Assembly (NCBI GenBank): GCA_964554265.1
Contig: CAZKOB010000002.1
Span: 386-64,385 of the forward strand
DNA: 64,000 nt
Direction: 5' to 3'
DNA from: an uncultured Bacteroides sp.
GTDB lineage: Bacteria; Bacteroidota; Bacteroidia; Bacteroidales; Bacteroidaceae
The translations under genes were made by a program, and so were the position numbers. The notes under the pieces are model-generated. The model saw nothing but the letters and a program-made list of their open reading frames with translations, was not told the DNA's origin and did no database searches. Positions 1 through 58,406 of the stretch are shown here, in pieces (the first letter of the stretch is position 1; each line of letters starts with the position of its first letter).

Positions 1-490
1 ATTTTACCCCGAAAAACGGACGTTCTCAAACTCGTTCACCTTGAAAATAAATTTTGTTCACCTTGAAAAATTTTTTACAAGGCACTTTAAAACCATTTTC
101 AAGGTGAACAAAATTTATTTTCAGCGTACTCTTTTTTCAGGCAAATCATACGCAAATGTGAATAAATGTATCTTTTCGGAACAAAAATTATACTATTTTT
201 ACATTTTGGTTCCAAGGCCTGAAAATGACCTTAGAATCGCGTAAATGGAACTTCGACAAGGTTTGGCCGATTTTATGCGATTCTGCGATCCTTGAATTTT
301 AACATTTCAAATTGTCAAAAAAAACACATAATTCATGACAAATTGATGGTATATCCAAGCTGATTTGTGAGTCCAATGCCCATGAAAAGGCATCAAAGAA
401 AACGCGAGAATCTTCGATGAGAATGTTTTGGTGACACGATGACGAAGTCAGGAAAAAAGGGATGGTGTTGGAGCGTATAAAACTGAATAT
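1..490 (+). repeat. Interspersed noncoding repeat, copy A. Only the right-hand part is present; the left part lies outside the window.
   Basis: Aligns block for block with eight other copies. Shared blocks include ccgaaaaacggacg, gttcaccttgaaaat, aatgtgaataaatgtatcttttc, cagaatcgcg...gcgattct and ggtgacacgatgacgaagtcagg (431-452). A degenerate right terminal motif aaaactgaatat lies near 480-490. Confidence 0.9.
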
Positions 491-524
491 TTGTGGAGTG
501 CTGTATGAATGGGTGAACAAAGTT

Positions 525-598: not shown

Positions 599-1900
599 TT
601 ATCTGCTCATAAGATAAGCTTTGAAGTCGGCAAACTCTTTGCTCATTTCGACACTTTGCTTTGTGCCCTGCATGAATGCGGCGAGTTTTGCAGGAATCTC
701 TACTTCTGAGCCTATAATCTTTTCCACTGTATCGCGGAATTTCGCAGGGTGTGCGGTTTCAAGGAACACACCGACCTCGTCTTCGCGCAGACCTTCTTCC
801 AATGCGCGGTAACCGCATGCACCGTGAGGATCGCACAAGTATCCTGTAGCCTCATATACATTGCTTATCGTATCGGCAATCTGGCTGTCTGTGTATGTTG
901 CGCCGCTGACGTCCTCGCATACGGCTTCATGGCTTCCTTTGTACAAATCGTATATGCGGGCGAAATTGCTCGGGTCGCCGACGTCCATTGCGTTTGCGAT
1001 AGTCTGTACCGACGGACGAGGACTGTATTGTCCGGTTTGCAGATATTTATAGAATATGTCGTTGGCATTGTTTGATGCGATGAACCGTTTCACTGGAAGT
1101 CCCATCTTCTTGCCGAACAGGCCGGATGTGATGTTGCCGAAATTGCCGGAAGGTACGCAGATGACGAGTTGGTCGGCAAGCCCCTTCTTTTTCATCTGTG
1201 CGTATGCATGGAAATAGTAGAAAGCCTGCGGAAGGAATCTTGCCACATTGATGGAGTTCGCCGAAGTAAGTTTCATGTGGCGATTCAGTTCTTCATCCAT
1301 GAATGCTGATTTCACCAGCGCTTGGCAGTCATCGAACACACCGTCTATTTCTAAGGCTGTGATGTTTTGTCCGAGTGTGGTAAACTGGCATTCTTGTATA
1401 GGGCTTACCTTGCCTTTCGGGTAAAGTACATATACGTGTATGCCGTCGACACCGAGGAAACCGTTGGCAACAGCTGAACCGGTGTCGCCTGATGTTGCCA
1501 CCAGCACATTGACTTGCTCGTTGCCTTCCTGCTTGATGAAGTACCCGAGCAGACGTGCCATGAATCGCGCGCCTACATCCTTGAACGCAAGAGTCGGTCC
1601 ATGAAAAAGTTCAAGGCTGTAGATGTTGTCTTTCACCTTTACCACCGGACAGTCGAATGCCAGCGTGTCGTAGACAATCTGCTTGAGTGTGTCCGCCGGA
1701 ACGTCTTCACCGAAGAATGCGTCTGCTACAGTGTATGCAATTTCCTGGAATGTCATGTTTTCGATATTGTCGAAAAACTCCTTTGGAAGCGCTTTGATTA
1801 CTTCCGGCATATACAGTCCCTTGTCTTCTGCCAGCCCTTTCACTACAGCTTTGTGTAGGTCGGCAACAGGAGCTTTTGAGTTCGTACTGTAAAATTTCAT
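599..1900 (-). CDS. thrC: Threonine synthase
   Basis: 433-aa ORF with clear threonine synthase character, including the PLP-lysine context HGPTLAFKD. It is the last gene of a thrA / PGM-like / thrC operon. Confidence 0.93.
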   Translation of the reverse strand: MKFYSTNSKAPVADLHKAVVKGLAEDKGLYMPEVIKALPKEFFDNIENMTFQEIAYTVADAFFGEDVPADTLKQIVYDTLAFDCPVVKVKDNIYSLELFHGPTLAFKDVGARFMARLLGYFIKQEGNEQVNVLVATSGDTGSAVANGFLGVDGIHVYVLYPKGKVSPIQECQFTTLGQNITALEIDGVFDDCQALVKSAFMDEELNRHMKLTSANSINVARFLPQAFYYFHAYAQMKKKGLADQLVICVPSGNFGNITSGLFGKKMGLPVKRFIASNNANDIFYKYLQTGQYSPRPSVQTIANAMDVGDPSNFARIYDLYKGSHEAVCEDVSGATYTDSQIADTISNVYEATGYLCDPHGACGYRALEEGLREDEVGVFLETAHPAKFRDTVEKIIGSEVEIPAKLAAFMQGTKQSVEMSKEFADFKAYLMSR

Positions 1901-1913
1901 ATCTTGTGTTATG

Positions 1914-3185
1914 TTAGTTTAATTCCATAAAAGCCTTCATAAATTCATCTTTCTTCAGATAGCCGTATCCGCCCTTTTGGCATGACTCTTCATCAAAAGT
2001 CTCCACTTCGTCCTGTTGTATGCCGGGACAATAGATAAGGAAAGGTACAGGCTCGTTGGTGTGTGTGCGTAGTTTTATGGGCGTCGGATGGTCTGGCAGG
2101 ACAGCAATGGCTATAGGCTCTGTGCTGACTTTGGATGCATCGCCGTCATTGTTCCGCATTTCCTCTTCCCATGCCTTGTTCACAGACTCTACATATTGCC
2201 ATATAGGACGTATGGCGCGATGGTCAAGGTTCTCTATCGTCTGAATCTTCAAGTCAAGTTTGCCGTCGTGTCCCGCTTCGTCGCTTGCTTCGATGTGCAG
2301 GTAAACGAAGTCGTCGGTCTTCAGAGCCTCGATAGCTGCTTGAGCTTTGCCTTCGTAATTGGTGTCGGCAAGTCCGGTTGCACCTTCAACGTCGACGCAT
2401 CTGAGTCCTGCATAATGTCCGATGCCTCGTATCAGGTCTACGGCTGTGATGACAGCGCCTCGTTTGATTTGAGGATAAGTCTCTGTCAGCGGAACCATGT
2501 CCGGACGGTATCCGCCGGCCCAGGGCCAGATGCTGTTGGCTGGGTCTTTCCCTTCTTTTATGCGCTGTTTGTTGAACGGATGTTCGGCCAGTAACAGCTG
2601 CGATTTCAGAATGAGTTCGTTGATGAGTTTGGCTGTATCTTCTGCTTCTGGCACTTCCGCTCTGACGAGCAGCGGTTGCCACGGTTGTCCGGGTACATCA
2701 TGAGGAGGGGTGCATGCCAGCCGCTTGTCGCCGCCTTTGATGACCAGCAGGTGGCGGTATTGCACGCCTGTATAGAAGTGTATGCGCTCATTGCCCAGAT
2801 GTTCTTGCAAATACTTGATAAGTATGTCGCCTTCTTCTGTCTTAAGATGTCCGGCGGAATGATTCTTGATACATCCGTTCTCGATACAAATCAGGTTGCA
2901 GCGTATGGCCATGTCGTCCGGTTCCAGTTCCACACCTATGCTTGCTGCCTCCAGTGGGCCTCGCCCTTCGTAGACGTGTGTCTGGTCATATCCGAGAATC
3001 GAGGAATTTGCCACTTCACTGCCCGGATGAAATCCTTCCGGAATGGTAGACAGCATGCCCGTTCTTCCCTTTTTTGCCAGCAGATTCATGTATGGAGTGT
3101 CTGCATACTGTAGCAATGTCTTGTTGCCGAGACTCTCGACCTTCCAGTCTGCCATCCCGTCGCCAAGTATGATTATGTGTTTCAT
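1914..3185 (-). CDS. Cofactor-independent phosphoglycerate mutase-family protein (archaeal ApgM-like), embedded in the thr operon
   Basis: 423-aa ORF with metalloenzyme-superfamily motifs: ILGDGMAD at the N-terminus and HIEASDEAGHDG. It lies 13 nt upstream of thrC and about 110 nt downstream of thrA. Confidence 0.85.
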   Translation of the reverse strand: MKHIIILGDGMADWKVESLGNKTLLQYADTPYMNLLAKKGRTGMLSTIPEGFHPGSEVANSSILGYDQTHVYEGRGPLEAASIGVELEPDDMAIRCNLICIENGCIKNHSAGHLKTEEGDILIKYLQEHLGNERIHFYTGVQYRHLLVIKGGDKRLACTPPHDVPGQPWQPLLVRAEVPEAEDTAKLINELILKSQLLLAEHPFNKQRIKEGKDPANSIWPWAGGYRPDMVPLTETYPQIKRGAVITAVDLIRGIGHYAGLRCVDVEGATGLADTNYEGKAQAAIEALKTDDFVYLHIEASDEAGHDGKLDLKIQTIENLDHRAIRPIWQYVESVNKAWEEEMRNNDGDASKVSTEPIAIAVLPDHPTPIKLRTHTNEPVPFLIYCPGIQQDEVETFDEESCQKGGYGYLKKDEFMKAFMELN

Positions 3186-3296
3186 CTTTACATACGTTTT
3201 ATAAGGAACGTAGAACCGACATCCGAAAACCGGTGTGCAGGTTTTCGGTTCCTTCCGGCCGGTTCCGGTCCTTGTTCTCTTTGACTTGCTGTTTAT

Positions 3297-5735
3297 TTAG
3301 ATGTTTGCGATACTCATGATGTCGGCAAAAACTCCGGCTGCCGTAACACTTGCACCGGCACCGTATCCTTGTATGAGCATAGGATACTCATGATAACGCT
3401 CTGTCGTGATGAGGATGATGTTGTTGCTTCCTTCAAGATCGTAGAAAGGATGGTGCTCATTCACTTCTTCCAGCGATACGGTGGCCTCTCCTGCATCGAG
3501 TTTGGCCACGAACCTCCAATGCTTGTTTTCTGCTTCAAGCACTTTGCGTCGTGCCTCAAAGCTGCTGTCGAGTTCCGGCAGTTTCTTCCAGAAGTCGTCC
3601 AATGAGCCTGCAAGCAGAGCATTCGGGATAAACAGATTCTTCTTCACGTCTTCCTGTTCTATTTTGTATCCTGCCTCGCGCGAAAGGATGACAAGTTTTC
3701 TTATCACATCTTTTCCGCTGAGGTCGATGCGTGGGTCCGGTTCAGAATATCCCTCTTCCTTGGCAAGACGTACCGTCTGGCTGAATGGAATTTCTGCGCT
3801 TATGGTATTGAATATGAAGTTGAGTGTTCCGCTCAATACGGCTTCCAGCTTTAAGATGCGGTCGCCGCTGTTCTTGAGGTCATTGATGGTGTTGATGATG
3901 GGCAGTCCTGCACCGACGTTTGTCTCAAACAGGAACTTTACTCCTCTTTTGCGTGCGGTGTCCTTGAGTCTGGCATAATTCTTGTATTCCGACGAGGCTG
4001 CCACTTTGTTCGCTGCCACTACGGATATGTTATGCTCAAAGAAGTCGCCATACAGCGCTGCCACTTCTGCACTTGCCGTACAGTCGACAAACACGGAGTT
4101 GAAGATGTTCATCCCTATCACCTCGTTCCTGAGTCTTTCGATATTGCTTGCTTCACTCTGTTTCAACTGTTCGCGATAGTTGGAGAGGTTGAGTCCCTCT
4201 CTGTTGAACATGGCATTGTGTCCGCTGGCTATCCCCACCACATTGAGCTGCAGTCCGCGTTCTTTTTTCAGTTTCTCACGCTGTCCTGCTATCTGGTCTA
4301 TCAAACTGCTGCCTACCGTTCCTACACCGCAGATAAAAAGGTTCAGCACTTGATATTCGGAGAGAAAAAAACTGTCGTGGATGACATTCAGGGTCTTTCT
4401 CAGAGATTTGCTTTCGACGACAAACGATATGTTGGTTTCCGAGGCGCCCTGTGCACAAGCTATGACGCTTATGCCGCTGCGTCCCAGTGTGCCGAACAGT
4501 TTGCCGGCTATGCCCGGAGTGTGCTTCATATTTTCACCTACCACTGCCACTGTGGCGAGGTTGCTTTCAAGCTTCATCCTGTACATGGCGCCCATCTCTA
4601 TCTCCTTGGCGAACTCTTTGTTCAGCACCTCGCAGGCCTGTTCTGCGTCTTCATTGCGCACACCGATGGAAGTGCTGTTCTCCGAGGATGCCTGGCTTAC
4701 CATGAATACGCTTATTCCGCAGTCTGCCAAGGCCGAGAATATGCGGCGGTTTACACCGATAACCCCGACCATCGACAAGCCGGAAACAGTGATGAGGCTG
4801 GTGTTGTTGATGGACGAGATGCCCTTGATGGCTCTGCTCTCGTCTCCGCATTCCTGTTGTATGATGCTTCCTTTTGCCTCCGGATGGAACGTGTTCTTTA
4901 TCAATATCGGTATGTTCTTCACGCATACGGGATATATTGTAGGCGGATACACCACCTTTGCGCCGAAGTTGCAAAGTTCCATCGCCTCCACGTAGGAAAG
5001 TCGGTCGATGGTGTATGCCGTGTTTATCACTCTCGGGTCGGCTGTCATGAATCCGTCCACATCGGTCCATATTTCAAGCACGTCTGCATCAAGGGCGGCA
5101 GCGATGATGCTTGCCGTGTAGTCGGAGCCGCCGCGTCCGAGATTGGTAATCTCTCCGCTCTGCATGTCCGTGGATATGAATCCGGGTACAAGCGCAACTT
5201 TCACGTCCTTGCCGAAATCCTTGAAAGCTCCGCATACAAGCGAATTGGTCAGTTCTGAATTGAGGAAATTGCTGCGCTGTTTCTTCTCCGTCTTGATGAA
5301 GGACAGGGAATCGAACCATTGGGCGCCTTCTATCAGAGATGCGACGATATTTGATGATATGCGTTCTCCATAACTGACGATAGCATTGGAGGTCTTTTCT
5401 GACAGGTCTCGAATCAGGTATACTCCTTGATAAATGCTCTTTAGGTCTGCAAGCAGCTTGTCTACGGTTGTGAGCAGAGCATTCTTCTTTGCCGGGTCGG
5501 GGATGATGGCGTCAATTATCTGGTGATGACGTTCTACCATCTCTGCATAGGCATTGAGGTACGAAGTGTCGCCCGACTGGGCCAGCTTCGATGTGCCGAT
5601 CAGCTTGTCGGTGATACCTCCGAGTGCGGAAACTACAACTACCACTGGTTCCTCGGCTGCCTCGACAATCTTCTTGACATTGAGAATACTCTCTACGGAA
5701 CCTACGGATGTTCCGCCAAACTTTAATACTTTCAT
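3297..5735 (-). CDS. thrA: Bifunctional aspartokinase / homoserine dehydrogenase
   Basis: Aspartokinase N-terminus KVLKFGGTSVG, a central ACT-like region, and a C-terminal homoserine dehydrogenase with a GVGTVG dinucleotide loop. The ORF opens at 5786, but the ATG at 5735 (MKVLKFGG) fits the family N-terminus. Confidence 0.93.
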   Translation of the reverse strand: MKVLKFGGTSVGSVESILNVKKIVEAAEEPVVVVVSALGGITDKLIGTSKLAQSGDTSYLNAYAEMVERHHQIIDAIIPDPAKKNALLTTVDKLLADLKSIYQGVYLIRDLSEKTSNAIVSYGERISSNIVASLIEGAQWFDSLSFIKTEKKQRSNFLNSELTNSLVCGAFKDFGKDVKVALVPGFISTDMQSGEITNLGRGGSDYTASIIAAALDADVLEIWTDVDGFMTADPRVINTAYTIDRLSYVEAMELCNFGAKVVYPPTIYPVCVKNIPILIKNTFHPEAKGSIIQQECGDESRAIKGISSINNTSLITVSGLSMVGVIGVNRRIFSALADCGISVFMVSQASSENSTSIGVRNEDAEQACEVLNKEFAKEIEMGAMYRMKLESNLATVAVVGENMKHTPGIAGKLFGTLGRSGISVIACAQGASETNISFVVESKSLRKTLNVIHDSFFLSEYQVLNLFICGVGTVGSSLIDQIAGQREKLKKERGLQLNVVGIASGHNAMFNREGLNLSNYREQLKQSEASNIERLRNEVIGMNIFNSVFVDCTASAEVAALYGDFFEHNISVVAANKVAASSEYKNYARLKDTARKRGVKFLFETNVGAGLPIINTINDLKNSGDRILKLEAVLSGTLNFIFNTISAEIPFSQTVRLAKEEGYSEPDPRIDLSGKDVIRKLVILSREAGYKIEQEDVKKNLFIPNALLAGSLDDFWKKLPELDSSFEARRKVLEAENKHWRFVAKLDAGEATVSLEEVNEHHPFYDLEGSNNIILITTERYHEYPMLIQGYGAGASVTAAGVFADIMSIANI

Positions 5736-6117
5736 TGCGCTGGTTTGTTTTTTTTGTGTTTTGCCTGTCACAGGATATGCAGACATATCCGTACAGCTTC
5801 CCCCCCTACAGGGTTTGTATTTTTTTTGTAAATAAAAATCCGGATTCTGCCGGCTAACTCATGACCTTGTTAGCCGTTGGTTAGGAATCATGAATATATA
5901 CACCATCTGCTCAACCCCTAAGGGTCATGCCCTTGGCTGCTGTTGTCTCCGTACAAGTCCAAATACGGCTGAAGTCGGTATGAAGTGTATATATGTTCAT
6001 TTGTATGATAGCAAATTTCTTAAAATCGCTGCAAATTTAGAACTTTTTGAAGAATAAACAAACGAAATATGACTTTTTTAGATGCAGAAATACGGAGGTT
6101 TGGTAATCACAGTGTTA

Positions 6118-8121
6118 CTAAGCCGGGTCTACGTCGTAGTGGATGTTCAGTCCGTTGGCCGAAGGTTGCTTCAGTGTCTGTTCTTTTATGGCACGCAGTA
6201 TGGACCGCACCTTGCTGACGGAGGCGCCGGATTCAATCTTGATGACTATTTTCCGGATGAACAGCGACTGCACGCGGCTTACCGGAGGGCGGTCAGGGCC
6301 TAATATGCGGTCGCCGAATGCTGATCTGAGCATCGAGGCCATCGACTGCGAGAGGGTCTCCAACGTGTCGTTGTTCTTGTGGCGCAGGTATGCATAGATG
6401 AGGCGGTGGAACGGAGGGTAACGGAATAAGCTGCGTTCTTGCATTTGTGATGTGTACATGGCTGTGTAGTCGTTGCTGACCACCTGAGCGATAATGTCGC
6501 TTTCGGCGCTCCGTGTCTGCAAAACTACCTTGCCTTTGTGGTGTTTCCTGCCGGCGCGTCCGGCCACCTGCGACAGTATGTGGAATGTGCGTTCGTAGCT
6601 GCGGAAGTCCGGCTGGTTGAGCATGGTGTCGGCATCGAGAATGCCCACCACACTGACGTTGTCGAAGTCCAGTCCTTTTGACACCATTTGAGTGCCGATG
6701 AGGATGTCGCTCTTGTGTGCGGCAAAGTCGCCGATGATGCGTTCGTATGCTGTGCGTGTGCGCGCCGTGTCGAGGTCGAGACGCAAAATGCTTGCGTCCG
6801 GAAACAGGTCCTTTATCTGGTCTTCTACACGCTCTGTCCCTACGCCGACAGCTGAAAAATCTGCCTCTTCGCAGTTGGGGCATTTGGGGGGCAGGGTATA
6901 GGTGTGGCCGCAATAATGGCATGAAAGCATCCCCGTGCCCTTGTGGTAGGTGAGGCTTACATCGCAGTGCTCGCAGCGCGGAACCCATCCGCATGTGTGG
7001 CATTCTATGAATGGGGAGTATCCGCGCCGGTTCTGAAACAGAATCACTTGTTCGTGCTTGCCGAGGGCTTCTTCTATGGCATCGACAAGTGTCTGTGAGA
7101 ATGCGCCCTTCATCCGCTTCTGGTGTCTCAGCCGCTTGATGTCTACAACGTTGATTTCCGGCAGCTGTATGTCGTTGTATCTTTGTGTGAGCCGTACATA
7201 ACCGTAACGTCCGTTCTGTGCGTTGTGGTAAGTCTCGATGCTTGGAGTGGCAGTGCCGAGAAGTGTCTTTGCCCCATATTGGCGCGCGAGCATGATAGCC
7301 GCACTGCGTGCGTGGTAACGCGGTGCCGGGTCTTGCTGCTTGTACGATGTCTCGTGTTCTTCGTCCACAATTACAAGACCAAGATTCTTGAAAGGGAGGA
7401 ATACGGACGAACGCACCCCGAGGATGAGGCTGTAGGGGGTGTCGGAAAGCTGGCGGCTGTATACCTCCACACGTGCGCCGTCGGCAAATTTTGAATGGTA
7501 TACTCCGAGTTTGTCACCGAACACTTTCCGCAGCCGCTCCGTTATCTGGGTGGTGAGCGCAATTTCCGGAAGCAGGTACAACACTTGTTTCCCTTCTTCT
7601 ATGTATTTGTTGATAAGATGTATGTACACTTCCGTCTTTCCGCTCGACGTCACTCCGTGAAGCAGAGCGATGTCTTTTTCTGCAAAACACCGTCTTATCT
7701 CGTCGAAAGCCGTGAGTTGTGCTGCGTTCAGCACATTCTTCAAACCCTCCGCCTCCGGACGTATGCTTTCCGCCTTTCTTTTCCTGACACCCTCTTTCTT
7801 TTGAGGTGTTTTCATGCCGGCTGGCATGGCTGCGTTGTAGACATCTCCGAGAGGACAGATATAGTAATCGGACACCCATTTCCAGAATGCCAGTTGCCGG
7901 TCGCTGACTATCGGCGTGGCATCTGTAGTCTCGCAGATGTCTTTGGTGGAAATTCCCGTGGGGGCCTGGTCGTGTACACGGAGCACGATGCCTGTATACA
8001 GCTTTTTCTTCCCGAACGGTACAACCACTCTGCACCCTCTCCTTACTGTGTTTTCCATTTCTTTTGGGATGGAATAGGTGAAGTTTTCAAACGGAATGGG
8101 GAGTATTATATCTGCGTACAT
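6118..8121 (-). CDS. priA: Primosomal replication restart helicase PriA
   Basis: Walker A GVTSSGKTEVY, a DEEH box (VIVDEEHE), and a cysteine-rich zinc module (CHTCGW..CEHCD..CHYCGH..CPNC). The ORF opens at 8169; the ATG at 8121 (MYADIILPIP) fits the family N-terminus. Confidence 0.93.
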   Translation of the reverse strand: MYADIILPIPFENFTYSIPKEMENTVRRGCRVVVPFGKKKLYTGIVLRVHDQAPTGISTKDICETTDATPIVSDRQLAFWKWVSDYYICPLGDVYNAAMPAGMKTPQKKEGVRKRKAESIRPEAEGLKNVLNAAQLTAFDEIRRCFAEKDIALLHGVTSSGKTEVYIHLINKYIEEGKQVLYLLPEIALTTQITERLRKVFGDKLGVYHSKFADGARVEVYSRQLSDTPYSLILGVRSSVFLPFKNLGLVIVDEEHETSYKQQDPAPRYHARSAAIMLARQYGAKTLLGTATPSIETYHNAQNGRYGYVRLTQRYNDIQLPEINVVDIKRLRHQKRMKGAFSQTLVDAIEEALGKHEQVILFQNRRGYSPFIECHTCGWVPRCEHCDVSLTYHKGTGMLSCHYCGHTYTLPPKCPNCEEADFSAVGVGTERVEDQIKDLFPDASILRLDLDTARTRTAYERIIGDFAAHKSDILIGTQMVSKGLDFDNVSVVGILDADTMLNQPDFRSYERTFHILSQVAGRAGRKHHKGKVVLQTRSAESDIIAQVVSNDYTAMYTSQMQERSLFRYPPFHRLIYAYLRHKNNDTLETLSQSMASMLRSAFGDRILGPDRPPVSRVQSLFIRKIVIKIESGASVSKVRSILRAIKEQTLKQPSANGLNIHYDVDPA

Positions 8122-8319
8122 CTTGGTATTTCCTTTTTGTAATCGGTTGTTCGTTGATTGGGAATGCAAAGATAAGCGTTTTTATTGTCCGTGCGTCATT
8201 TTCGGCATGGAGTTCGTGAAAAAGAATTCTGTGAGATTTCTGTCTCATCGGTTTTCTGGCCGCCTTTTGCTTTTTCGGTAGATGTCAAGTTCCGTCAAGC
8301 GGTTTGGGGACTGGCGGAT

Positions 8320-8756
8320 TTAAGGTGGTGTATTCGCAGGGGTTTCTCGTGGATTTTGATGGGCTTTAAACTGATGTATCCACGAGAAGAGTCTGTGAGT
8401 ACACAAGCAAAGGCAACTGTCTTTCTTATGAGCGTTTCTTCTTTCTTTTTGACACAAAATCCACCCGTTGCAGACAGAACCTTATTAACACAATTAAGAT
8501 TCGTTTACATTCTTCGGATTGCCAAGTTTTTAAATATTTATTGATAAGTAATTAATAATCAATAAGATACTATTTTGATAAAACTATGCGGTTTTAGATG
8601 CAAGAAGTACAGGTTGGAACAAAAATAGGATATGCTGATAATCAGTAAGTTATAAAAATTCTTGTCCAAGATTTCTGTTTTCCGCCACCAAAACCTATCT
8701 TTGTTTTTCGTGACATTGAAAAATCCGATTTCAGTTTTTTTAAGAAATTCATTTGG
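8320..8756 (+). repeat. Interspersed repeat, copy B. Only the left-hand part is present, and it breaks off abruptly at about 8756.
   Basis: Contains ttcttctttctttttgacac (8438-8455), ttattaacacaattaagattcgtttacat, tgataatcaataag, agatgcaagaagtacaggttgg, aaaataggatatgctgataatcag and ctatctttgtttttcgtgacattgaaaaatc. Homology to other copies stops after taagaaattcatttg. The left boundary is approximate. Confidence 0.85.
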
Positions 8757-9472
8757 ACAATACTGAGCAGCGACAGCTCCATCTGCAGCACCTCGCTCTT
8801 GGTGGTGGTGCCCAGGGCGAGGCGTCGCTGAGCCATCTGGTGCAGCGACTCGCGGTCGGATAGTGTCGAGACGCTCTGCCTGTAGTCGGACTGCGCCGAG
8901 AGCACTCCGAAGAACAGCGACGTGGTGTGTATGGCGATGTCCTGCATGGATGCCATGTATGCCCGCTGCGCCACTTCATACTCTATGGGTGCCGTCTTCT
9001 TCTCCCACTTCAGCGCGTTGAATGCCCTCAACGGCTGGGTGTAGCTGATGCGCATGGGCTGCGAATTGTAGGTCCTCTCCTTGTAGGTGAACTGCTCGAG
9101 TCGATACAGATACGACTGAAGAGAAACTGTACCTCCAGTTGCTGCTATCTTCTGATCCACCGACAGGGTGAGGCTGTTGGAGAGCGAATTGTTGTTTACA
9201 TACGCCACCTTGCCATCCTCGTAGTTGCGCGCCTCCACTATGGAGTGGTCGAAGTTCATCAGCCCGCCACTGAGGTTGATTGATGGTAGCAACTCAGCTT
9301 TGAATGACCGATAAGTCCAGTAGCTTGCCATGAAAGAGTAGCGTGCTAGTGACGCATCGTATGAATTCTGTTGGGCAATGCGAATGGCATTTGCTAATGA
9401 TAATTCTTGCGCTTCGGCATAACCTATAGATGTCACTAAGGAGATTATTGCAATGAAATACTTCATAATCAT
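8757..9472 (-). pseudogene. TolC-family outer membrane efflux protein; 5' fragment only
   Basis: Signal peptide MIMKYFIAIISLVTSIGYAEAQ, followed by about 238 aa of TolC-like sequence (ELSLANAIRIAQQNS..., ..RRLALGTTTKSEVLQMELSLL). The reading frame then runs into repeat copy B, adding about 38 unrelated residues before a stop at 8642. Family members are usually well over 400 aa. Confidence 0.8.
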
Positions 9473-9916
9473 AAAATTCCGGAAAGTCAGAACGGAACAG
9501 AATGCTATCTTCAGCCATCGCTTCTATGCGTTGTCTTAAAGTATTGCTATCTATAGAATGTCCATTTAATATATAACCTTTGAAAGGTTGGTAATTTTTC
9601 AAAGATAAAGTAAATGTTTTTTTCGATTGACAATAAATTATAGTGGTTTTATGTCTTTTTTTACAAATTATCTGAGAATTGTATAAGAATGTCTGATGCT
9701 TGTCATGCGTAGATTCCCAAGCCATGATGTTTAATAAATATTAAAATCTTTAGTTTGCATACTTTTGTGTCTTCAAAATCGAGCCAACAATACTTTTCTG
9801 TCGTATTAAATTCCCTGCACTGATTATCAAGAAGTACTACAAATTTGGAATGACTGAACCGGAAATATAAAAACACTCTTTTGAAAAATCAAAATCACCG
9901 TATTGTTTTTTGTAAT

Positions 9917-9994
9917 CAGCACTGCTGATTATAAAAACTGCACTGCTGATTTTATAATCTGCACTGCTGATTTTACAATCGGCAGTGCAGATTT
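9917..9994 (+). repeat. Four 21-bp-phased repeats with core c(a/t/g)gca(c/g)tgc(t/a)gatt
   Basis: Units start at 9917, 9938, 9959 and 9980. The first sits inside the 17-bp near-palindrome aatcagcactgctgatt (9914-9930). Units 2 and 3 are identical (ctgcactgctgatttta). Confidence 0.8.
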
Positions 9995-10462
9995 AAGAAA
10001 TAAGTGCGGTGAAAACTACTTTCCTGTGGAGTGAAATTAAATTTCTTCAGTCTGTAATGTAATGATTCTCAATGTTCTACAGGAAAAGAAAAGTTTGCGG
10101 CGGAGGAATCTGTGAGAACAACAGCTAAGAAACCATCCGACTCACGAGACGAGTCTGTAAATACACCGGTAAAATGATCTCTATTGTATATGGGAAACCG
10201 TTTTGCGCCCTATGGCAGGTACTTCCGTAAAAATGCTACATTCTTGGAGTGACTTTGTGCAATCAGCTCTTTGGCCTGCGGATTCAAATACTCTCAAAAT
10301 CGGCAGAAAACTTAGTTTTCTCCTTATTCTGTCATAAAAAAAACTATCATTGTTGGTGAAAAGAGATTTTTCAGTAACTTTGCAGCTATTACATGCGGAC
10401 TGCTGCAACAAGTTATACTGCTAATCAGAAATCTAAATATATAATTTTTATATCTTAAATAT

Positions 10463-14604: not shown

Positions 14605-15417
14605 AGAACTCTTAGAGACATTTCTTCTTTCTTTTTGACACTAAGTCCACCTATCGCGGATGGAATCTTTTTAACACAATTAAGGTTCATTTGCATTTGA
14701 ATGATTGCTGATTTCTTGATAATTTGTAGATAAATGATTGATAATCAAAAAAATACTATTTGGGTAGAACGGTGCAGTTTTAGATGCAAGAAGTACAGGT
14801 TGGGACAAAAATAGGAAATGTTGATAATCAACAAGTTATGAAATTATTCATCCAAAAATCCTGTTTTTCGTCGCCGGAATCTATCTTTGTTTTTCGTGGC
14901 ATTGAAAAATCCGATTTAAACTTTTTAAGAATTTAATTTGTGCAGCACCAAATTTCTGTCCGAAAAACGGACGTTTTCAAACTCGTGCACCTTGAAAATA
15001 AATTTCGTTCACCTTGAAAAAATTTTTAAAGCGCCTTTTAAACAAATTTGGTGCACCTTGAAAATTTATTTTCAGCGTACTCTTTTTTCAGACGATGCAC
15101 ACGCGAATGTGAATAAATGTATCTTTTCGGAGCGAAAATTGTATTGTTTTCACATTTGAATTTCAAGGCCTGAAAATGGCCTCAGAATCGCAAAAATGGA
15201 ACTTCGGTAAGGTTCGGCCGATTTTAAGCGATTCTACGGGCTTTGAATTTTAACATTTCAGATTGTCAGAAAAAGTCCGTAATTTATGACAAATAGATGG
15301 TATGGAGTGGAGATGACCAAACTGATTTATGAAGACCTTAGAACTCATGAAAAGACATCAAAGAAAACGCGAGAATCTTCGATGAGAATGTTTTGGTGAC
15401 ACGATGCCGAAGTCAGG
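14605..15417 (+). repeat. Interspersed repeat, copy C. The core is present but the left-hand module is missing.
   Basis: Runs from the ttcttctttctttttgacac block (about 14621) to ggtgacacgatgccgaagtcagg (ends at 15417). Its internal three-repeat segment is in the direct-repeat configuration. Confidence 0.9.
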
Positions 15418-15471
15418 AAATACGACTTGTGAAGAAGCTCATATCCGTGCCTTTTGTATGGATTGGGAATC

Positions 15472-20781: not shown

Positions 20782-21600
20782 AACAGTTCTTCTTTCTTTT
20801 TGACAATAACTCCACCTGCCGCAAACGAAACTTTATTAACATAATTAAGATTCGTTTACATTCTGCCAATAGCCGAATTTGGGATGTTTTGTTGATAAAT
20901 AATTGATAATCAGTAAAATGCTGTTTCAGCAAAACGATGCGGTTTCAGGTGCAAAAGGTATAGGTGGAAACAAAAATAGGATGTGTTGATAATCAGCAGG
21001 TTATAGAATTATTTATCTAAAACCCTTGTTTTTCGTTGCCGGAATCCATCTTTGTTTTTCGTGGCATTGAAAAATCTGATTTAGACTTTTTAAGAAATTA
21101 ATTTGTGCAACACCGGATTTCAGCCCGAAAAACGGACGTTCTCAACTTCGTTCACCTTGAAAATAAATTTCGTTCATCTTGAAAATGTTTTTAAAGTGCC
21201 TTTTAAACAAATTTTGTTCACCTTGAAAATTTATTTTCAGCGTACTCTTTTTTCAGGCAAAGCATAAGCAAATGTAAATTAATGTATCTTTTCAGGCAGT
21301 AAATTATATTATTTTTACATTTGAGATTCAAGGCCCGAAAACGGCCTTAGAATCGCGTAAATGGAACTTCGGTAAGGTTTGGGCGATTTTATGCGATTCT
21401 GCGAGGCTTGGATTTTAACATTTCAGATTGTCAAAAAAAAGCCCGGAATTTATGACAAGTTGATAGTATATGACGGTGGGGGAAATCAAGCTGATTGATG
21501 AAGACATCAGCCTTGTTGCAGTGTGATGGCCGGACTGATAAACGAGGTCTATATCTTGGCAAATTCATTCTTTTTTAGTATTTTTGCGGAAACTGAATAT
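20782..21600 (+). repeat. Interspersed repeat, copy D. The core is present, with the alternative right-end module.
   Basis: Starts at the ttcttctttctttttgacaat block. Its internal segment is in the direct-repeat configuration. The right end (...ccttgttgcagtgtgatggccggactgataaacgaggtctatatct...aaactgaatat) matches copy E rather than A, C, F, H or I. Confidence 0.88.
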
Positions 21601-21696
21601 TTTTGATAATTGTTCAATCTGTTGCAAATCATTTTGTTTTGTATTTGCTGCGGATTGAATACTGTATATTAATGTTGTGTGTAAAGCGAAAAAATT

Positions 21697-23437: not shown

Positions 23438-23916
23438 GAAAAGTGGTTGTTTTTCTGATAAGATAAAAGTCCTTTTGTTTTTACGAATGCTTGACTTTCT
23501 GTGCCGGCTGAGAATCCCTGCTTCGGTTGCCCTCCGTCCGGCAGTGTATGATGGAAAATACCATCAGAACGTTTCTTTGGATGTCTGTGGAAGGGGCAAT
23601 CTGTAGCGGCAGGTAAAATAGTGCCACACATGAGATCTGTCTTCCGATGTGTTCGTTCGGAGACATTTATACCTTTCAGTCTTCACGAAAGGATTGGAAC
23701 GAACAAGGGTGTCCACTTAGATGAAGCCGCTGAACCAATGGACATGCATCAGGCAGCAAACATGCTTTCCTGCATATTTGCTGCTGAATATAGTATGTGC
23801 CGTCCGTGTTAGCATAATGATGATAGTCTGATTGGTGTATAGGCAAAGTTAGGGCTTTTTTTTCAAGTTCAAAAATTGTATCTCAAACAAATGTGGGGAT
23901 AATTTTTCCTACAACA

Positions 23917-24741: not shown

Positions 24742-25977
24742 TACGCGAGTTCAGTTTAAATTTCCGGTTAAAAAAGGTTCCGGTTGCCCTTGCATTCTTC
24801 AATATGTATCTGCCGTGCCTCCGGCTTGTTGCTGAAAAGGGAATACGCCGTAAGTGTGGTGTAGATGTTCGCAAGGATGTTTGCAGTTGTTTTTTGCCGG
24901 TGGGGTTATAGATGACTCTTGTGATGCTTATGGTTGTAAGTGGTTGTATTCACAGACTCCTCCGTCGCTTCGCGCCACCTCCCCTAACTTAGGGGAGGAG
25001 CCTGGTTACTCAGTGGGTGTAAATGCTATCATGTTATCAACCAGCAAGTTGGCTTACAGTTGGCTTTTCAGCGAGCAAGGTAACTAAGCTCCTCCCCTAA
25101 GTTAGGGGAGGTGGCGCGAAGCGACGGAGGAGTCTGTGAAGACAACAGCAAAAACAGCTGACTTTCTTATAGACTTTTCTTCTTTCTTTTTGACACTAAC
25201 TCCACCTGTCGCAGACGGAACTTTATTAACATATTTAAGGTTCATTTACATTCAGCCAATAGCCGAAATTCCGAAGTTTTATTGATAAATGATTGATAAT
25301 CAATAAAATACTATTTTAGCAAGATGATGCAGTTTTAGGTGCAAGAAGCACAGGTTGTAACAAAATAGGATATATTGATAATCAGCGAGTTATGAAATTT
25401 CTTACCCAAGATTCTTGTTTTTCGCCGCCAAAATCCATCTTTGTTTTTCGTGGCATTGAAAAATACGATTTAATCTTTTTAAGAAATAAATTTGCACAAC
25501 ACCTGATTTCAGCCCGAAAAACGGACGTTTTCAAACTCGTTCACCCTGAAAATAAATTTTGTGCGCCTTGAAAAATTTTTTACAAGGCACTTTAAAACTA
25601 TTTTCAAGGTGAATGAAATTTATTTCCAGCGTACTCTTTTTACGGGCGATTCACGCACAAATGTGAATAAATGTATCTTTTCAAAACAAAAATTACATTA
25701 TTTTTACATTCTCGGTTCAAGGCCCGAAAACGGCCTCAGAATCGCGCAAATGGAACTTTGGTAAGGTTTGGCCGATTTTATGCGATTCTACGGAGCCTTG
25801 AATTTTAACATTTCAAATTGTCAAAAAAAACTTGAATTTTATGACAAACAGACGGTGTGACGGTGGGGATGACCAAGCCGGTTTATGAGGATGTCTGCCC
25901 TGTTGCAGCCTGACAGTCGGACTGACAAATAAGGTCTATATCTGCACTGATTCGTCGCTTAAAACCGAACTTGCGTA
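24742..25977 (+). repeat. Interspersed repeat, copy E. Full length, with terminal inverted repeats and the nested short-arm palindrome.
   Basis: The left end tacgcgagttcagtttaaa (24742-24760) is an imperfect inverted copy of the right end cttaaaaccgaacttgcgta (25958-25977). All internal blocks are present. It carries the alternative right-end module shared with copy D. Confidence 0.88.
24951..25138. repeat. Nested palindromic module in copy E
   Basis: Left arm 24951-25001 (cacagactcctccgtcgcttcgcgccacctcccctaacttaggggaggagc) is the exact reverse complement of right arm 25088-25138. The loop is 86 nt. Confidence 0.95.
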
Positions 25978-43029: not shown

Positions 43030-43039
43030 CTTGTAAGTG

Positions 43040-44247
43040 TACGCGGGTTCGGTTTAAGAAAGTCCTGTAAAAGTTGGTAAGTAGGTGTTTTTACAGATGA
43101 CTATAGCTTGTGTTTTTGGGGGATTTTCGCAGATGTATTCACAGATGACTCTTATAATTCTTATGGTTATAAGCAGGTGTATTCACAGACTCCTCCGTCG
43201 CTTCGCGCCACGCCCTCCGTCGCAAGCTCCCCAATTGCTCCTATTCCGCAATTGCCCCTAACTTAGGGGAGGAGCCTGGTTTCCTTGTTCGCTGGAATAT
43301 CAATGATAGGTTAATATGTTGAATATCATTGGCGCGAAGCGACGGAGGAGTCTGTGAAGGCACCTGCAAAAACAACTGACTTTCTCAGAAACATTTCTTC
43401 TTTCTTTTTGTCACAAAAACTACTCGTTGCGGACGGAATCTTATTAACATAATTAAGATTTGTTTATATTTACTCAACCGTCTAAATTTTGATATTTCAT
43501 AGATAAACGATTGATAATCAATAAAATACTATTTTAGCAAAACAGTGCAGTTTTAGGTACAAGAAGTACAGGTTGTGACAAAAATAGGATACACTGATAA
43601 TCAGTAAGTTATGAAAATACCTGGCTGAGATTCCTGTTTTCTGCTACCAAAATCCATCTTTGTTTTTCGTGGCATTGAAAAATGTGATTTAGACTTTTTA
43701 AGAAAGTAATTTGTGCAACACCGGATTTCAACCCGAAAAACGGACTATCTCAAACTCGTTCACCTTGAAAATAAATTTCGTTCACCTTGCAATTTTTTTT
43801 ACAAGGCATTTTAAAACCTTTTTCAAGGTGAACGAAATAAATTTTCAGCGTACTCTTTTTTCAGGCGAGGCACACACGAATGTGAATAAATGTATCTTTT
43901 CAGAATGTGAATTATATTATTTTTACATTTGGGGTTCAAGGCTTGAAAACGGCCTTAGAATCGCGTAAATGGAACTTCAGTAAGGTTCGGTCGATTTTAT
44001 GCGATTCTACGAGTCTTGAATTTTAACATTTCAAATTGTCAAAAAAAGTCCGTAATTTATGACAAATGGATAGCGGAGATGAGACAACCACACTGATTTA
44101 CGAGAACATTGGGGCACATGAAAAGGCATCAAAGAACAGCGAAACTCTTCGATGAGAATTTTGGGGCGACACGATGACGAAGTCAGGGTGCATAAACATG
44201 CAAGATTACCAACTTTTTATAGGACCTTCTTAAATCGAATTCGCGTA
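43040..44247 (+). repeat. Interspersed repeat, copy F. Full length, with terminal inverted repeats and a nested long-arm palindrome whose right arm is truncated.
   Basis: Left end tacgcgggttcggtttaagaaagtcc (43040-43065) against right end ggaccttcttaaatcgaattcgcgta (44222-44247): 22 of 26 positions are complementary. All internal blocks are present, including ggcgacacgatgacgaagtcagg, which ends at 44187. Confidence 0.88.
43184..43356. repeat. Nested palindromic module in copy F (long left arm, truncated right arm)
   Basis: The left arm cacagactcctccgtcgcttcgcgccacgccctccgtcgcaagctccccaattgctcctattccgcaattgcccctaacttaggggaggagc matches the copy I arms. Only ggcgcgaagcgacggaggagtctgtg remains of the right arm. 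Confidence 0.85.
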
Positions 44248-49854: not shown

Positions 49855-51318
49855 ATGCAGAATGAAGGACATAAAGGAGTGATGAAGTCTTTGGACTGGT
49901 GGACTATCGGTCTATATCTTGTCTTGATTACATGGGGATGGTTTTCTGTATGCGGAGCAAGCTACGATTTCAGTAATCCTGATGTTTTCAGTCTTGGTTG
50001 CAATTCCGGCAAACAACTCTTGTGGGCCGGGACTTCTGTGTGCCTTGCCGGCACGCTTCTTTTGATTGAGAAAAGATTCTTCGATACGGCTTCCTATTAT
50101 ATATATATAGTAATGATTGGAGTGCTTGTTGTGACAATCATTGTTGCGCCCGATACAAAAGGTTCGCGTTCGTGGTTGCCTATCGGGTCATTTATGAAAA
50201 TACAGCCGGCTGAGTTTGCCAAGTTTGCTGTTGCTCTGACCATAGGGAAATACATGGACCGGTATGGTTTTGATATACATAATCTGAAGGATTTTGGCAG
50301 AGTGGTGGGACTCATACTGTTGCCGATGGTGCTCATTGTGTGCCAGAAAGAAACAGGGACAGCACTTGTTTATCTCTCTTTCTTTCTTGTGCTTTATCGA
50401 GAAGGAATGACGGGCGCTTTTCTTTTTGCTGCATTTGCGGCTGTGGTCTACTTTGTTGTGGGTATACGTTTTGGCGATGAACTTATCCCTGACATGCCTG
50501 TTTCTGTCGGTGAGTTTACGGTGCTGCTGTTGTCAATGCTGTTCACTGTCGGCATGACGCTTGTGTTTTGTCATAACATTAAAGCCGTCAAACTGATGTT
50601 TTTTGGAGGAGGCGGAACTATTCTTCTTGCATACCTTTTTTCTGCATACGTGATTCCTTTCAATGTGTGTCATGTCATGCTTGCTGTCAATATTGCCGTT
50701 ATTCTGTATCTGCTGATACTTGCCATATATACTCGTTTGTACACTTATCTGCTGATAGGCTTGTTTGCCATTGCCTCTACCGGTTTCTTTTATATGTGCC
50801 ACAAAATGTTCAATGCACTTGATGACCATCAGCGTGTACGTATTGAAGTGCTTCTTGGCATGAAAGAAGATCTGCGTGGTGCCGGATATAATGTGAATCA
50901 GGCTAAGATTGCCATCGGTTCTGGAGGGTTTTATGGAAAGGGTTTTCTTAATGGTACACAGACTAAATTGAAGTATGTGCCCGAACAGGATACGGACTTT
51001 ATCTTTTGTACTGTCGGTGAAGAAGAAGGTTTCATCGGTGCGTCAGCCGTATTGATTGTCTATCTGCTTTTTATATGGAGGTTGATTTTTGTCGCAGAGC
51101 GCCAGCCTGACACGATGGGACGTGTCTATGGCTACTCAGTCATAAGCATCTTCCTTTTCCATTTGTTCATAAATGTAGGCATGGTGCTCGGACTTACTCC
51201 TGTCATCGGTATTCCTCTGCCGTTTTTCAGCTATGGAGGTTCTTCTTTGTGGGGATTTACCATTCTTTTGTTCATTTTTCTGAGAATGGACGCAGAGAGA
51301 AATCTTAAAAAGAGGTAA
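49855..51318 (+). CDS. rodA: SEDS-family peptidoglycan glycosyltransferase RodA
   Basis: Polytopic SEDS protein (..QPAEFAK.., ..PVIGIPLPFFSYGGSS..). The ORF opens with TTG at 49819, and in-frame ATGs lie at 49855 and 49882, so the exact start is uncertain. Confidence 0.9.
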   Translation: MQNEGHKGVMKSLDWWTIGLYLVLITWGWFSVCGASYDFSNPDVFSLGCNSGKQLLWAGTSVCLAGTLLLIEKRFFDTASYYIYIVMIGVLVVTIIVAPDTKGSRSWLPIGSFMKIQPAEFAKFAVALTIGKYMDRYGFDIHNLKDFGRVVGLILLPMVLIVCQKETGTALVYLSFFLVLYREGMTGAFLFAAFAAVVYFVVGIRFGDELIPDMPVSVGEFTVLLLSMLFTVGMTLVFCHNIKAVKLMFFGGGGTILLAYLFSAYVIPFNVCHVMLAVNIAVILYLLILAIYTRLYTYLLIGLFAIASTGFFYMCHKMFNALDDHQRVRIEVLLGMKEDLRGAGYNVNQAKIAIGSGGFYGKGFLNGTQTKLKYVPEQDTDFIFCTVGEEEGFIGASAVLIVYLLFIWRLIFVAERQPDTMGRVYGYSVISIFLFHLFINVGMVLGLTPVIGIPLPFFSYGGSSLWGFTILLFIFLRMDAERNLKKR

Positions 51319-51389
51319 GGCTGAATCGTGATGTGATGATTGCAAAAGTGGGGCTGTAAGTGCGGCTTCCCGTAGACCTGTGCATATTG

Positions 51390-52390
51390 TTTACGGTCAA
51401 TCGTTCTCGTCGAAGATTCTCGCTGTTCTCTGATGCCTTTTCATGGGCCCTGACGTCCTCATCAATCAGTTTGGTTATTCCATTCCACTATCTATTTGTC
51501 ATAAATCATGGGTTTTTCTTGATAATTTGAAATGTTAAAATTCAAGGCTCGCAGAATCGCATAAAATCGGCCGGACCTTACCAAAGTTCCATTTGCGCAA
51601 TTCTGAGGCTGTTTTCAGACTTTTAGCCCCAAGTGTAAAAATAATATAATTTGCATTCCGAAAAGATACATTTATTCACATTCGCGCGTGCATCGCCTGA
51701 AAAAAGAGTACGCTGGAAATAAATTTCGTTCACCTTGAAAATAGTTTTAAAGTGCCTTGTAAAAAATTTTTCAAGGTGAACGAATTTTATTTTCAAGGTG
51801 AACGAGTTCGAAAATGTCCGTTTTTCGGGCTGAAATAGGGTTTGACTAAATTTGATTTCTTAAAAAATCTGAATTGGATTTTTCAATGCCACGAAAAACA
51901 AAGACGGGTTTTGGCGACGAAAAACAGGAATTTTGGGCAAGATTTTTTTATAACTTATTGATTGTCAACATATTCTATTTTATCCCGACCCGTATTTCTT
52001 GCATCTGAAACCGCATTGTTTTGCTGAAATAGTATTTTACTGATTATCAATTGCTTATCTGTGAAATGTCAAAATTTAGACAGTTGATTAAGTGTAAATT
52101 AGTCTTAATTATGTTAATAAAGTCCCGTCAGTTAAAAGTGAACTTAGTGTCAAAAAGAAAGAAGAAATGTTCATAAGAAAATCAGCTGTTTTTGCTGTTG
52201 TATTCACAGACTCCTACTTTAAATCATCAATTTTACAAAAGTCGCCCGTGGAAACACCAGCTCACAACCATAAGAATCACAAGAATCATCCATGAATCCC
52301 CCGGCAACACACACAACCGATTCACTTTTTGAATCGATTTTCGCGTATCACCCAAAACCGCAGACATTAGAATTACAATCTATTAATATT
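51390..52390 (-). repeat. Interspersed repeat, copy G (reverse orientation). It includes the left-hand module, but the palindrome is reduced to a stub.
   Basis: The reverse complement carries every core block (e.g. gtgtcaaaaagaaagaagaa at about 52148-52167, ccgaaaagatacatttattcacatt, gaatcgcataaaatcggcc). Both boundaries are approximate to within a few tens of nt. Confidence 0.85.
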
Positions 52391-52545
52391 TAATCACTTA
52401 TAAACCTCAACATATTTTTTCAAAGAAATATGGCCCCAAAAAAGCAGGAACTTTTTCTTCTGTAAGTTCGCAATATTGGAAAAAATCTATCTACATCAAG
52501 TATTTTTTCTTATATTTACAGCATAAATTCAAAAAAACAGGTCCT

Positions 52546-53376: not shown

Positions 53377-53392
53377 AGAAAGGGCTGCGAGT

Positions 53393-54484: not shown

Positions 54485-54544
54485 ATGCACGGCAAAGGAG
54501 GTAAGCAAAAACCAAATACGTTTTCCAAATACACCAGAAAAAAT

Positions 54545-54579
54545 ACCGCAGCCTGTATGAACAAAGTACAGGCTGCGGT
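54545..54579 (+). terminator. Terminator after the two-gene ATPase/DUF4435 cassette
   Basis: accgcagcctgta / tacaggctgcggt form a 13-bp perfect stem, followed by gttatta. Confidence 0.65.
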
Positions 54580-54644
54580 GTTATTATGTCATAAATCAAA
54601 CGGGCATACTTGCCCACAGTTATAAACCTAAACTTTATATTAAT

Positions 54645-55253: not shown

Positions 55254-55309
55254 ATCAGAAGAAGACAACACAGACCGGTACACACTCTTTTCTATTATAT
55301 ATTTGCAGA

Positions 55310-58279: not shown

Positions 58280-58406
58280 CACAAAAACGCAGAAAAACAA
58301 ACGGACAGAATATCAAAAACAAGGAAACAGATTCTAAAAAAAACGGAAGCATAGATTCCGCTATACTTCCGACAATTAATCATTTTGAAGAAAAACACGA
58401 ACCGTG

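Follow-up and report, generated by a model that had tools for sequence, protein, structure and literature searches.

A composite, non-coding and possibly mobile repeat family in a chromosome segment of an uncultured Bacteroides sp.

We analysed a family of intergenic repeats in a 64,000-nt stretch of DNA from an uncultured Bacteroides sp. (contig CAZKOB010000002.1, assembly GCA_964554265.1), hereafter called the window, taking as reference the copy that occupies positions 24742-25977 (copy E). We tentatively propose, with a probability of roughly 0.45, that copy E belongs to a set of at least nine decayed copies of a mobile repeat that is composite, non-coding and non-autonomous. The most economical account of the family, held at the same rough probability, would be an old burst of a non-autonomous element bounded by a terminal motif (T) and carrying a core unit of about 580 nt (K579), followed by decay and by recombination between copies. 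The conserved core is probably much older than the T-bounded element.

The portion of the genome that was read amounts to 64 kb. The window stems from a 68,110-bp contig that apparently belongs to a metagenome-assembled genome, and the closest relatives found were further genomes of this kind, labelled Bacteroides sp., Bacteroidaceae or Prevotellaceae. Sister-lineage loci include L010, L013, L014 and L022, and outgroup loci include L023, L024 and L028; an assembly from the gut of a spiny pocket mouse supplied one of the outgroup contigs, and L001 is a conspecific contig.

Repeat copies, their terminal motif and their sites

Nine copies of the repeat were recognised, totalling 8098 nt (12.7 % of the window, i.e. 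about one copy per 7 kb). All nine are intergenic and dispersed, i.e. multi-copy in the manner of miniature transposable elements with inverted repeats (MITEs). Those on the minus strand (G and I) are additions to the list drawn up in an earlier reading of this DNA, made from the letters alone (the sequence-only reading). Pairwise identity among the seven complete copies ranges from 74.6 to 82.9 % over 783 ungapped core columns, with no close pair; the E-F value (78.9 %) is not above that of other pairs, and 53 % of the columns in the core alignment of these seven copies are invariant. The longest invariant run spans 27 nt (TCTTTGTTTTTCGTGGCATTGAAAAAT), a length reached in 0 of 20,000 column shuffles. 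The copies are the following:

Copy A, 1-492, plus strand: cut by the window start; K579 part at 1-323, right arm, truncated right T unit at 480-492
Copy B, 8386-8763, plus strand: 5' half only; abuts a broken OEP/TolC-like gene
Copy C, 14610-15420, plus strand: no T units and no left arm; directly after the acdA terminator; four iterons, all direct
Copy D, 20787-21602, plus strand: no left arm; right arm of the D/E type; truncated right T unit at 21590-21602
Copy E, 24742-25977, plus strand: full length, 1236 nt; left T unit, left arm with a nested palindromic element (P), core, right arm of the D/E type, right T unit
Copy F, 43040-44247, plus strand: full length, 1208 nt; left T unit at 43040-43087, P at 43178-43358, K579 at 43430-44048
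Copy G, 51404-52392, minus strand: diverged left T unit at 52327-52347; 3' end truncated
Copy H, 57318-58284, plus strand: left T unit at 57318-57382, degenerate short palindrome, K579 at 57520-58138, no right T unit
Copy I, 60724-61924, minus strand: diverged left T unit at 61859-61879, P at 61524-61808, K579 at 60836-61455

The outer-membrane efflux (OEP/TolC-like) gene that adjoins truncated copy B appears split into two overlapping open reading frames (ORFs) of 276 and 143 aa (8642-9725), which suggests that a deletion took part of both.

The sequence-only reading had described imperfect terminal inverted repeats (TIRs) around full-length copies, and these were found again as inverted pairs at the very edges of E and F. 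With up to three mismatches allowed, the T motif TACGCGRGTTCGGTTTAAG has five matches in the window (24742+, 25977-, 43040+, 44247- and 57318+) against 0.00 expected, and no match in any of 100 shuffles; the looser pattern TACGCGNNTTCNNTTTAA recovers the identical five sites against 0.48 expected. All five stand at the edges of repeat copies, namely both ends of E and of F, where they are inverted, and the left end of H, which the sequence-only reading had rightly equated with those of E and F. No T motif lies away from a copy in the 64 kb.

The inverted match covers 19-20 nt with one indel in E and 26 nt between the two ends of F, and the similarity of F-right to H-left runs over about 55-65 nt. 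Further copies keep altered versions: a truncated right T unit, AAACTGAATATTT, at 480-492 (A) and 21590-21602 (D), a degenerate motif that had also been noticed before, and a diverged left motif, TACGCGAAAATCGNTTCAAAA, at 52327-52347 (G) and 61859-61879 (I). T or a remnant of it is present at five of the eight assessable left ends (E, F, H, G and I) and at four of the eight assessable right ends (A, D, E and F). Terminal inverted repeats of at least 10-15 bp occur in E and F; A, D, G, H and I retain a single end or remnants, whereas B and C have neither. Units delimited in addition to those given with the copies are:

Left T unit of E, 24742-24760, plus strand: two mismatches to the consensus
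Right T unit of E, 25958-25977, minus strand: about 99 % identical, like the whole E-right junction, in three conspecific short-read contigs
Right T unit of F, 44190-44247, minus strand: placed by alignment of the ends

Orthologous sites were then compared around E and F. The spacer between an outer-membrane protein (OMP) gene and mraZ measures 1380 nt here (E accounting for 1236). It is 447 nt long in L022, whose lineage has the family at other sites, and about 230 nt long in five outgroup loci (L023-L029). When the window was aligned with E removed, homology reached to about 10 nt before the left T unit and resumed about 10 nt after the right one. As flank homology ends near both T units of E, the block between them behaves as inserted DNA. 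At the right end of F, homology to L010 and L012 resumes about 20 nt past the T unit; its left T unit begins 12 nt after the yqeY terminator. As far as these alignments tell, the T units mark the limits of extra DNA in E and F, and this is the strongest support for the view taken in the sequence-only reading.

Short-read contigs of the species, obtained from several samples, stop at each of the copies, and their sizes follow the distances between repeats:

17,290-nt contig, from E to F: 17,063 nt in the window
8,030-nt contig, from A to B: 7,894 nt in the window
5,477-nt contig, from C to D: 5,367 nt in the window
7,420-nt contig, from F to G: 7,157 nt in the window
5,362-nt contig, from G to H: 4,926 nt in the window
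Contigs of about 2,600-2,730 nt, from H to I: 2,440 nt in the window

An assembly artefact was rejected because these independent contigs, drawn from several samples, reproduce the junctions between genes and repeats. The copies are fixed in position among conspecific strains. No presence/absence of copies within the species was found among the conspecific contigs, and the one polymorphism encountered there is a change at the left end of copy F in L001, described below.

Nested palindromes, arms and the conserved core

The layers of the repeat are ordered with T outermost, then P, then a core of about 0.8 kb that holds K579. What the sequence-only reading had called the left module corresponds largely to P, a separate nested element; the absence of that module from C and D was borne out when the copies were compared. 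P was located as follows:

P in E, 24943-25146, no strand assigned: stem of about 55 bp, DNA fold of -89 kcal/mol, z = -17.7
P in F, 43178-43358, and in I, 61524-61808: with degenerate solo arms alongside
P in relatives: L024 2982-3267, L022 2069-2229, L013 8792-8942

In the sister lineage P lies on the opposite side of the core. It stands alone in the outgroup species of L024, with arms of 49 nt that are 100 % complementary, and this species keeps only a weak core-like relic. The P arms contain TTCACAGACTCCTCCGTCGC, with inner CCCCTAAnTTAGGGG sub-hairpins, and substitutions between lineages are matched on both arms (GTCGCTTCGCGCC/GGCGCGAAGCGAC versus GTCACTTCGTGAC/GTCACGAAGTGAC). P has the look of an independent and young element of the MITE or REPIN kind.

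The right arm exists in two versions, one carried by D and E and the other by A, C, F, G, H and I. A second subdivision concerns the iteron array of the core, in which the last two of the four units are inverted (44 bp) in A and E-I as compared with C, D and all sister-lineage copies; this inversion yields a 14-bp hairpin, missing from the ancestral arrangement. Since the grouping by iteron inversion (C with D) differs from that by right arm (D with E), the copies have recombined. The array and the K579 unit of the reference copy were placed as follows:

Iteron array: 25543-25632 in E, 14987-15077 in C, 21153-21243 in D
K579 of E, 25213-25829, plus strand: bounded by TATTAACATA (25224-25233) and TTTTAACATT (25803-25812), with the iteron-like array and the AGAATCGC/GCGATTCT hairpin

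Of the whole repeat, K579 alone is common to the window copies and the sister lineage. It contains two TGATAATCA palindromes, the inverted pair TTTGTTTTTCG.GGC / GCCCGAAAAACGG, four iteron-like repeats of about 22 bp (GTKCRCCTTGAAAATAAATTT) and the hairpin AGAATCGC...GCGATTCT. The centre of this hairpin is kept, while its stem is lengthened on the inner side here and on the outer side (CCTCCGT/ACGGAGG) in the sister lineage. The motifs T[TA]TTAACAT and TTTTAACAT[TA]TC lie 578-580 nt apart in ten of eleven copies from both lineages, and 568 nt apart in L013; the first of them, at the 5' end, persists within otherwise unalignable sequence. A K579 profile detects the 3' half (iterons, TAGAATC arm and ATTTTAACATTT) in the outgroup species (nhmmer E = 9e-8 to 1e-6), and the iterons themselves vary by lineage, reading GTTCACCTTGAAAATAAATTT here, GTGCGCCTTGAAAATAAATTTT in the sister lineage and CAGTGCGCTGAAAATAAA in the outgroup.

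Three side observations concern these motifs. The direct repeats of the TTTTAACAT type each appear, by eye, to occupy the loop of a small hairpin, with the stem TTGAA/TTCAA here and TTGAT/ATCAA in the sister lineage. A Xer/dif-like reading of the TTAACAT motifs was tried and rejected: on visual inspection the XerD-arm half alone agrees, and an XerC arm is missing. Finally, four tandem 21-bp units (TTTTATAATCTGCACTGCTGA-like) upstream of etfB (9908-10012) resemble the outgroup CAGTGCGCTGAAAATAAA iterons and might be a remnant of the iteron array or related to it; L013 has a full core copy at the equivalent position upstream of etfB.

The statement of the sequence-only reading that the repeat has no coding capacity proved sound. 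Six-frame ORF comparison of the copies revealed no ORF with a conserved start. An open frame of about 85 codons has no bias of variable columns towards any codon position (0.39/0.33/0.44, p = 0.36) and is interrupted by stops in D, and the concatenated six-frame translation has no homologue among 5.8 billion protein clusters. Rfam searches, in gathering and E-value modes, returned only chance miRNA-like hairpin matches, and no tRNA was found in the repeat. The RNAalifold covariation term was -0.2 with 7 sequences and -2.7 with 11 sequences (626 columns), and the consensus fold was weak (-32 kcal/mol). The Bacteroidetes promoter consensus TTTG-N17-22-TAnnTTTG has no match inside any copy.

The core motifs had no match in the JGI metagenomes searched, and scans of viral contigs were also empty. 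BLASTN of copy F against plasmids and phages gave no match, and the T unit had only chance matches among plasmids (E of at least 0.5). In the genome collection there were, among the matches listed, only two chance matches of 22-24 nt, in L007 and L008.

The sister lineage carries copies at yqeY-MGS (opposite to F) and between araC and the OMP gene; further ones lie upstream of etfB and downstream of the MTHFR gene. Their sites and orientations differ in part from those seen in the window. Identity is 72-75 % with the window copies and 78-86 % among the sister copies; as these are closer to each other than to those of the window, the family multiplied after the split, separately in each lineage. 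The sister copy at the F site (L010) is 72 % identical to F, lies in opposite orientation and is no nearer to F than to E. Copy density differs about twofold between the two lineages. L022 and the outgroup loci L023, L024 and L028 have a core-like element at an identical position: downstream of the OMP gene, with P first and then the core on the minus strand. Neither an outer arm without core nor a core-free, 'empty' arm was found in the loci fetched.

Differences in synteny fall at repeats. They comprise an inverted priA-thrA-pgm-thrC block (599-8169 in the window, 14163-20873 in L013) and a break after rodA at a repeat copy (51318-52546 in the window, 13438-13565 in L010). Two sister-lineage assemblies, L013 and L014, differ upstream of etfB exactly at a copy, where L014 has a run of N.

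Mobile element, older core or host module

If the family arose from a T-bounded mobile element, its fullest layout would comprise a T unit of 20-60 nt, a variable left arm with nested P, the core of about 0.8 kb, a short right arm in one of two variants and an inverted T unit. A DDE-type transposase binding the T ends, encoded elsewhere or since lost, would have moved this unit in trans. The element would have spread in a single old burst and its movement would since have ended, and later deletion and inter-copy recombination would have removed or shuffled ends and arms. The core may have been cargo taken from an older resident element, or the carrier of sites that the element needs.

Several observations weigh against this account. 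No clean target-site duplication is present at the flanks of E or F: E is flanked by TAT or TATAT-like sequence on both sides and F by AGT or TAAGT offset by 1 nt, which is ambiguous in AT-rich DNA. A possible TA duplication at the T ends is part of the motif itself, the sites of relatives being too diverged for comparison. No transposase gene lies within the 64-kb window. The 1236 and 1208 nt of E and F exceed the usual size of prokaryotic MITEs, given as 50-800 bp (PMC11602168) or 50-1000 bp (PMC4596501), and these two copies have only T and core in common, their left spacers and right arms being different. The sequence shared by G and I extends 45 nt beyond the T-like motif, out to 52392 in G. 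At the E site, relatives hold 125-290 nt of unrelated and mutually variable spacer, which does not make a clean filled/empty pair. Copy F is present in L001, with 56 nt (43032-43087, including the left T unit) replaced by the 9 nt ACTGAACCG. Finally, sister-lineage copies have neither T nor terminal inverted repeats, yet they multiplied too.

The proposal of the sequence-only reading that the repeat is a non-autonomous DNA transposon is upheld by the family-specific T and by the inserted block at E, and is weakened on the matter of target-site duplication, size and the homology beyond T in G and I. The terminal motifs lie near homology boundaries in E and at F-right (about 10 and 20 nt away, respectively), and fail to do so in G and I. 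As for empty sites in relatives, the E block is indeed missing in L022-L029, with an unrelated spacer standing in its stead.

Like prokaryotic MITEs, the repeat is non-coding, intergenic, AT-rich and multi-copy, with TIRs that measure 15 nt or more in its best copies and no internal transposase. Unlike them, it is 1.2 kb long, has no demonstrable target-site duplication and consists of copies that are 75-83 % identical instead of near-identical, most of them without ends; nine copies in 64 kb are a local density far beyond the 10-20 copies per genome cited for bacteria. BrickBuilt and MITE464/PgRS of Porphyromonas gingivalis are MITE-like elements of Bacteroidales made of a leader, an internal repeat and a tail (PMC4596501). 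They resemble the present family in having TIRs in some copies only, ambiguous target-site duplications, an entirely intergenic location and elements nested in elements (PMC4596501). BrickBuilt has a 23-nt tandem minisatellite and TIRs matching resident IS5-family elements (PMC4596501), whereas the repeat described here has a unique core of about 0.8 kb, only four iteron-like units and no known matching insertion sequence. By its modular architecture, the BrickBuilt/MITE464 group is the closest described analogue; no sequence similarity to it was seen, and no search aimed at it was made.

Other systems share fewer traits with the repeat. P, taken by itself, is like REPINs in being a dispersed, long and near-perfect palindrome and unlike them in its size of 180-290 bp and its internal sub-hairpins. 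The Correia elements of Neisseria are TA-duplicating MITEs of the IS630/Tc1-mariner type, 100-155 bp in length. Each intact T starts with TA (TA/CGCG...CGCG/TA), which is compatible with a TA duplication, but this TA is inseparable from the repeat and no IS630-like gene was seen in the window. Mobile insertion cassettes (e.g. MIC231 of Bacillus cereus) are about 1-2 kb in size, carry inverted repeats of the insertion-sequence type together with passenger genes, and are moved in trans; the repeat is like them in size, in its inverted-repeat borders and in having no transposase, and differs in being without coding capacity.

A serious rival, if an unlikely one, is that K579 itself is the mobile or functional unit, spread via the TTTTAACAT repeats, the subterminal hairpin and the iterons, with T as a lineage-specific add-on; the enzyme could be a single-strand transposase of the HUH/Y1 type or a site-specific recombinase. 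Such a unit would account for the fact that K579 alone is common to both lineages, the 5' flanks of the sister copies being different, their T units absent and their P placed on the opposite side. It would also account for the spacing of 578-580 nt from T[TA]TTAACAT to TTTTAACAT[TA]TC in ten of eleven copies, for the 3' motif, TAGAATC hairpin arm and iterons detectable in outgroup species, for a hairpin centre (AGAATCGC/GCGATTCT) kept despite opposite stem extension in each lineage, and for the 27-nt invariant run that column shuffling never reached. However, the inserted block at the E site spans T to T and not direct repeat to direct repeat, and the loci fetched include no outer arms without K579 and no K579-free arm. 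In 800 AT-rich bases, chance alone would be expected to produce a direct repeat of 9-10 nt; no HUH or recombinase gene lies nearby in the window, and there is no Rfam match to omega-RNA or to IS605-type elements.

Palindrome-associated transposable elements of the IS200/IS605 type offer a model for such a core. They have no TIR and no target-site duplication, carry subterminal hairpins at both ends and a fixed target motif 5' of the left end, and depend on a cognate TnpA. The core is like them in its subterminal hairpin about 14 nt before the 3' end and in the short TTTTAACAT motif at the left flank and right end. Unlike them, it has no matching left-end hairpin, no tnpA/tnpB gene in the window and no IS605-type match in Rfam, and its 5' motif may be coincidental. 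We also consider it rather improbable that the core of about 580 nt is an ancient, self-contained non-coding element of this Bacteroidales clade, made up of the four lineage-specific iterons, the conserved hairpin and the TTTTAACAT repeats at its two ends and recognised by a dedicated, co-evolving DNA-binding or recombination protein, with T as a late, lineage-specific shell. Were this true, the core would represent either a new type of mobile DNA that is guided by a protein and has no terminal inverted repeats, or a domesticated cis-element distributed genome-wide.

It is distinctly unlikely, in our estimate, that the copies are a host-selected cis-acting module and not a transposon, i.e. a platform for a protein binding the iterons of about 22 bp and the palindromes, retained between genes and spread or homogenised by recombination and segmental duplication. 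Short, highly conserved blocks between variable spacers would be expected of such a module, as would iteron sequences that co-vary by lineage (GTTCACCTTGAAAATAAATTT, GTGCGCCTTGAAAATAAATTTT, CAGTGCGCTGAAAATAAA), a core-like element that L022 and the outgroup loci L023, L024 and L028 have at the same position, copies fixed among strains and a mosaic of modules (C and D grouped by the 44-bp inversion, D and E by the type of right arm). The module would nevertheless have to operate at nine unrelated loci, in both orientations to neighbouring genes, and without any Bacteroidetes promoter consensus in the copies. Several of these are truncated (A at its right end, B and G) at no apparent cost to the host, copy density differs about twofold between sister lineages, and near-equal divergence with no long near-identical tracts speaks against ongoing gene conversion.

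Two further readings are weak, and we regard each as very improbable. Invertons with inverted-repeat borders are common in Bacteroidales, E and F lie directly upstream of major cell-envelope operons, and the sister copy at the F site is in opposite orientation, so that E and F might be 1.2-kb regulatory cassettes flipped by a recombinase at the inverted T units, upstream of the dcw and mre operons; but the conserved mraZ promoter is kept outside E, no promoter consensus occurs within the copies, one or both T units are missing from most of them, conspecific contigs have a single orientation at E-right and F-left, the L010 copy of opposite orientation reaches only 72 % identity and lacks flanking inverted repeats, and no recombinase gene lies nearby in the window. 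Genes for a large structured non-coding RNA would be in keeping with the presence of several hairpins that are conserved and with a size, about 600-800 nt, similar to that of known large bacterial RNAs, but not with the want of any Rfam match beyond chance hairpins, the covariation terms of -0.2 and -2.7, an iteron hairpin missing from C, D and all sister-lineage copies, the missing promoter consensus and an organisation (nine diverged copies per 64 kb) unlike that of trans-acting RNAs.

Neighbouring features and biological meaning

The window is a segment of a Bacteroidales chromosome with thrC-pgm-thrA-priA, etfBA-acdA, a fucosidase gene and the mraZ-to-ftsZ division cluster, and further with mreBCD-pbp2-rodA, a PARIS defence pair, sodB, asnB, tonB and proAB. 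The PARIS anti-phage pair (52546-54484) consists of AriA (PADLOC, 2.5e-56) and AriB (2.7e-63; Pfam DUF4435) and adjoins copy G at the point where gene order leaves that of the relatives, in which rodA is followed by gldH, PSP1, holB and the MTHFR gene. Copies G and H, inverted relative to one another, flank the block 52546-57249. A TonB-family protein with three TonB_C domains is encoded at 58407-59735, and its gene contains an internal DNA repeat (58417-58716 versus 59254-59553, 74 % identical). Upstream of the lysine-exporter (LysO) gene, a non-coding stretch (23715-23860) is conserved at 74-83 % identity across species, with counterparts at 17963-18107 in L012, 1731-1816 in L024 and 2066-2200 in L028; it may be a leader or a riboswitch-like element, and Rfam gave no match to it at the gathering threshold.

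If the repeats do descend from an old burst of a T-bounded, non-autonomous element, they would form a non-coding transposon family that is, for a bacterium, large and dense to an unusual degree. They would then explain why short-read assemblies shatter into pieces of 2-17 kb and why gene order changes relative to the sister species exactly at copies, and the repeat would be a marker for the history of strains and lineages in rodent-gut Bacteroidales. The iterons, hairpin and end motifs of the core are kept across lineages that have almost no other intergenic DNA in common, and this conservation, as read from sequence comparison, points to a protein partner and to a function, whether for the element or for its host.

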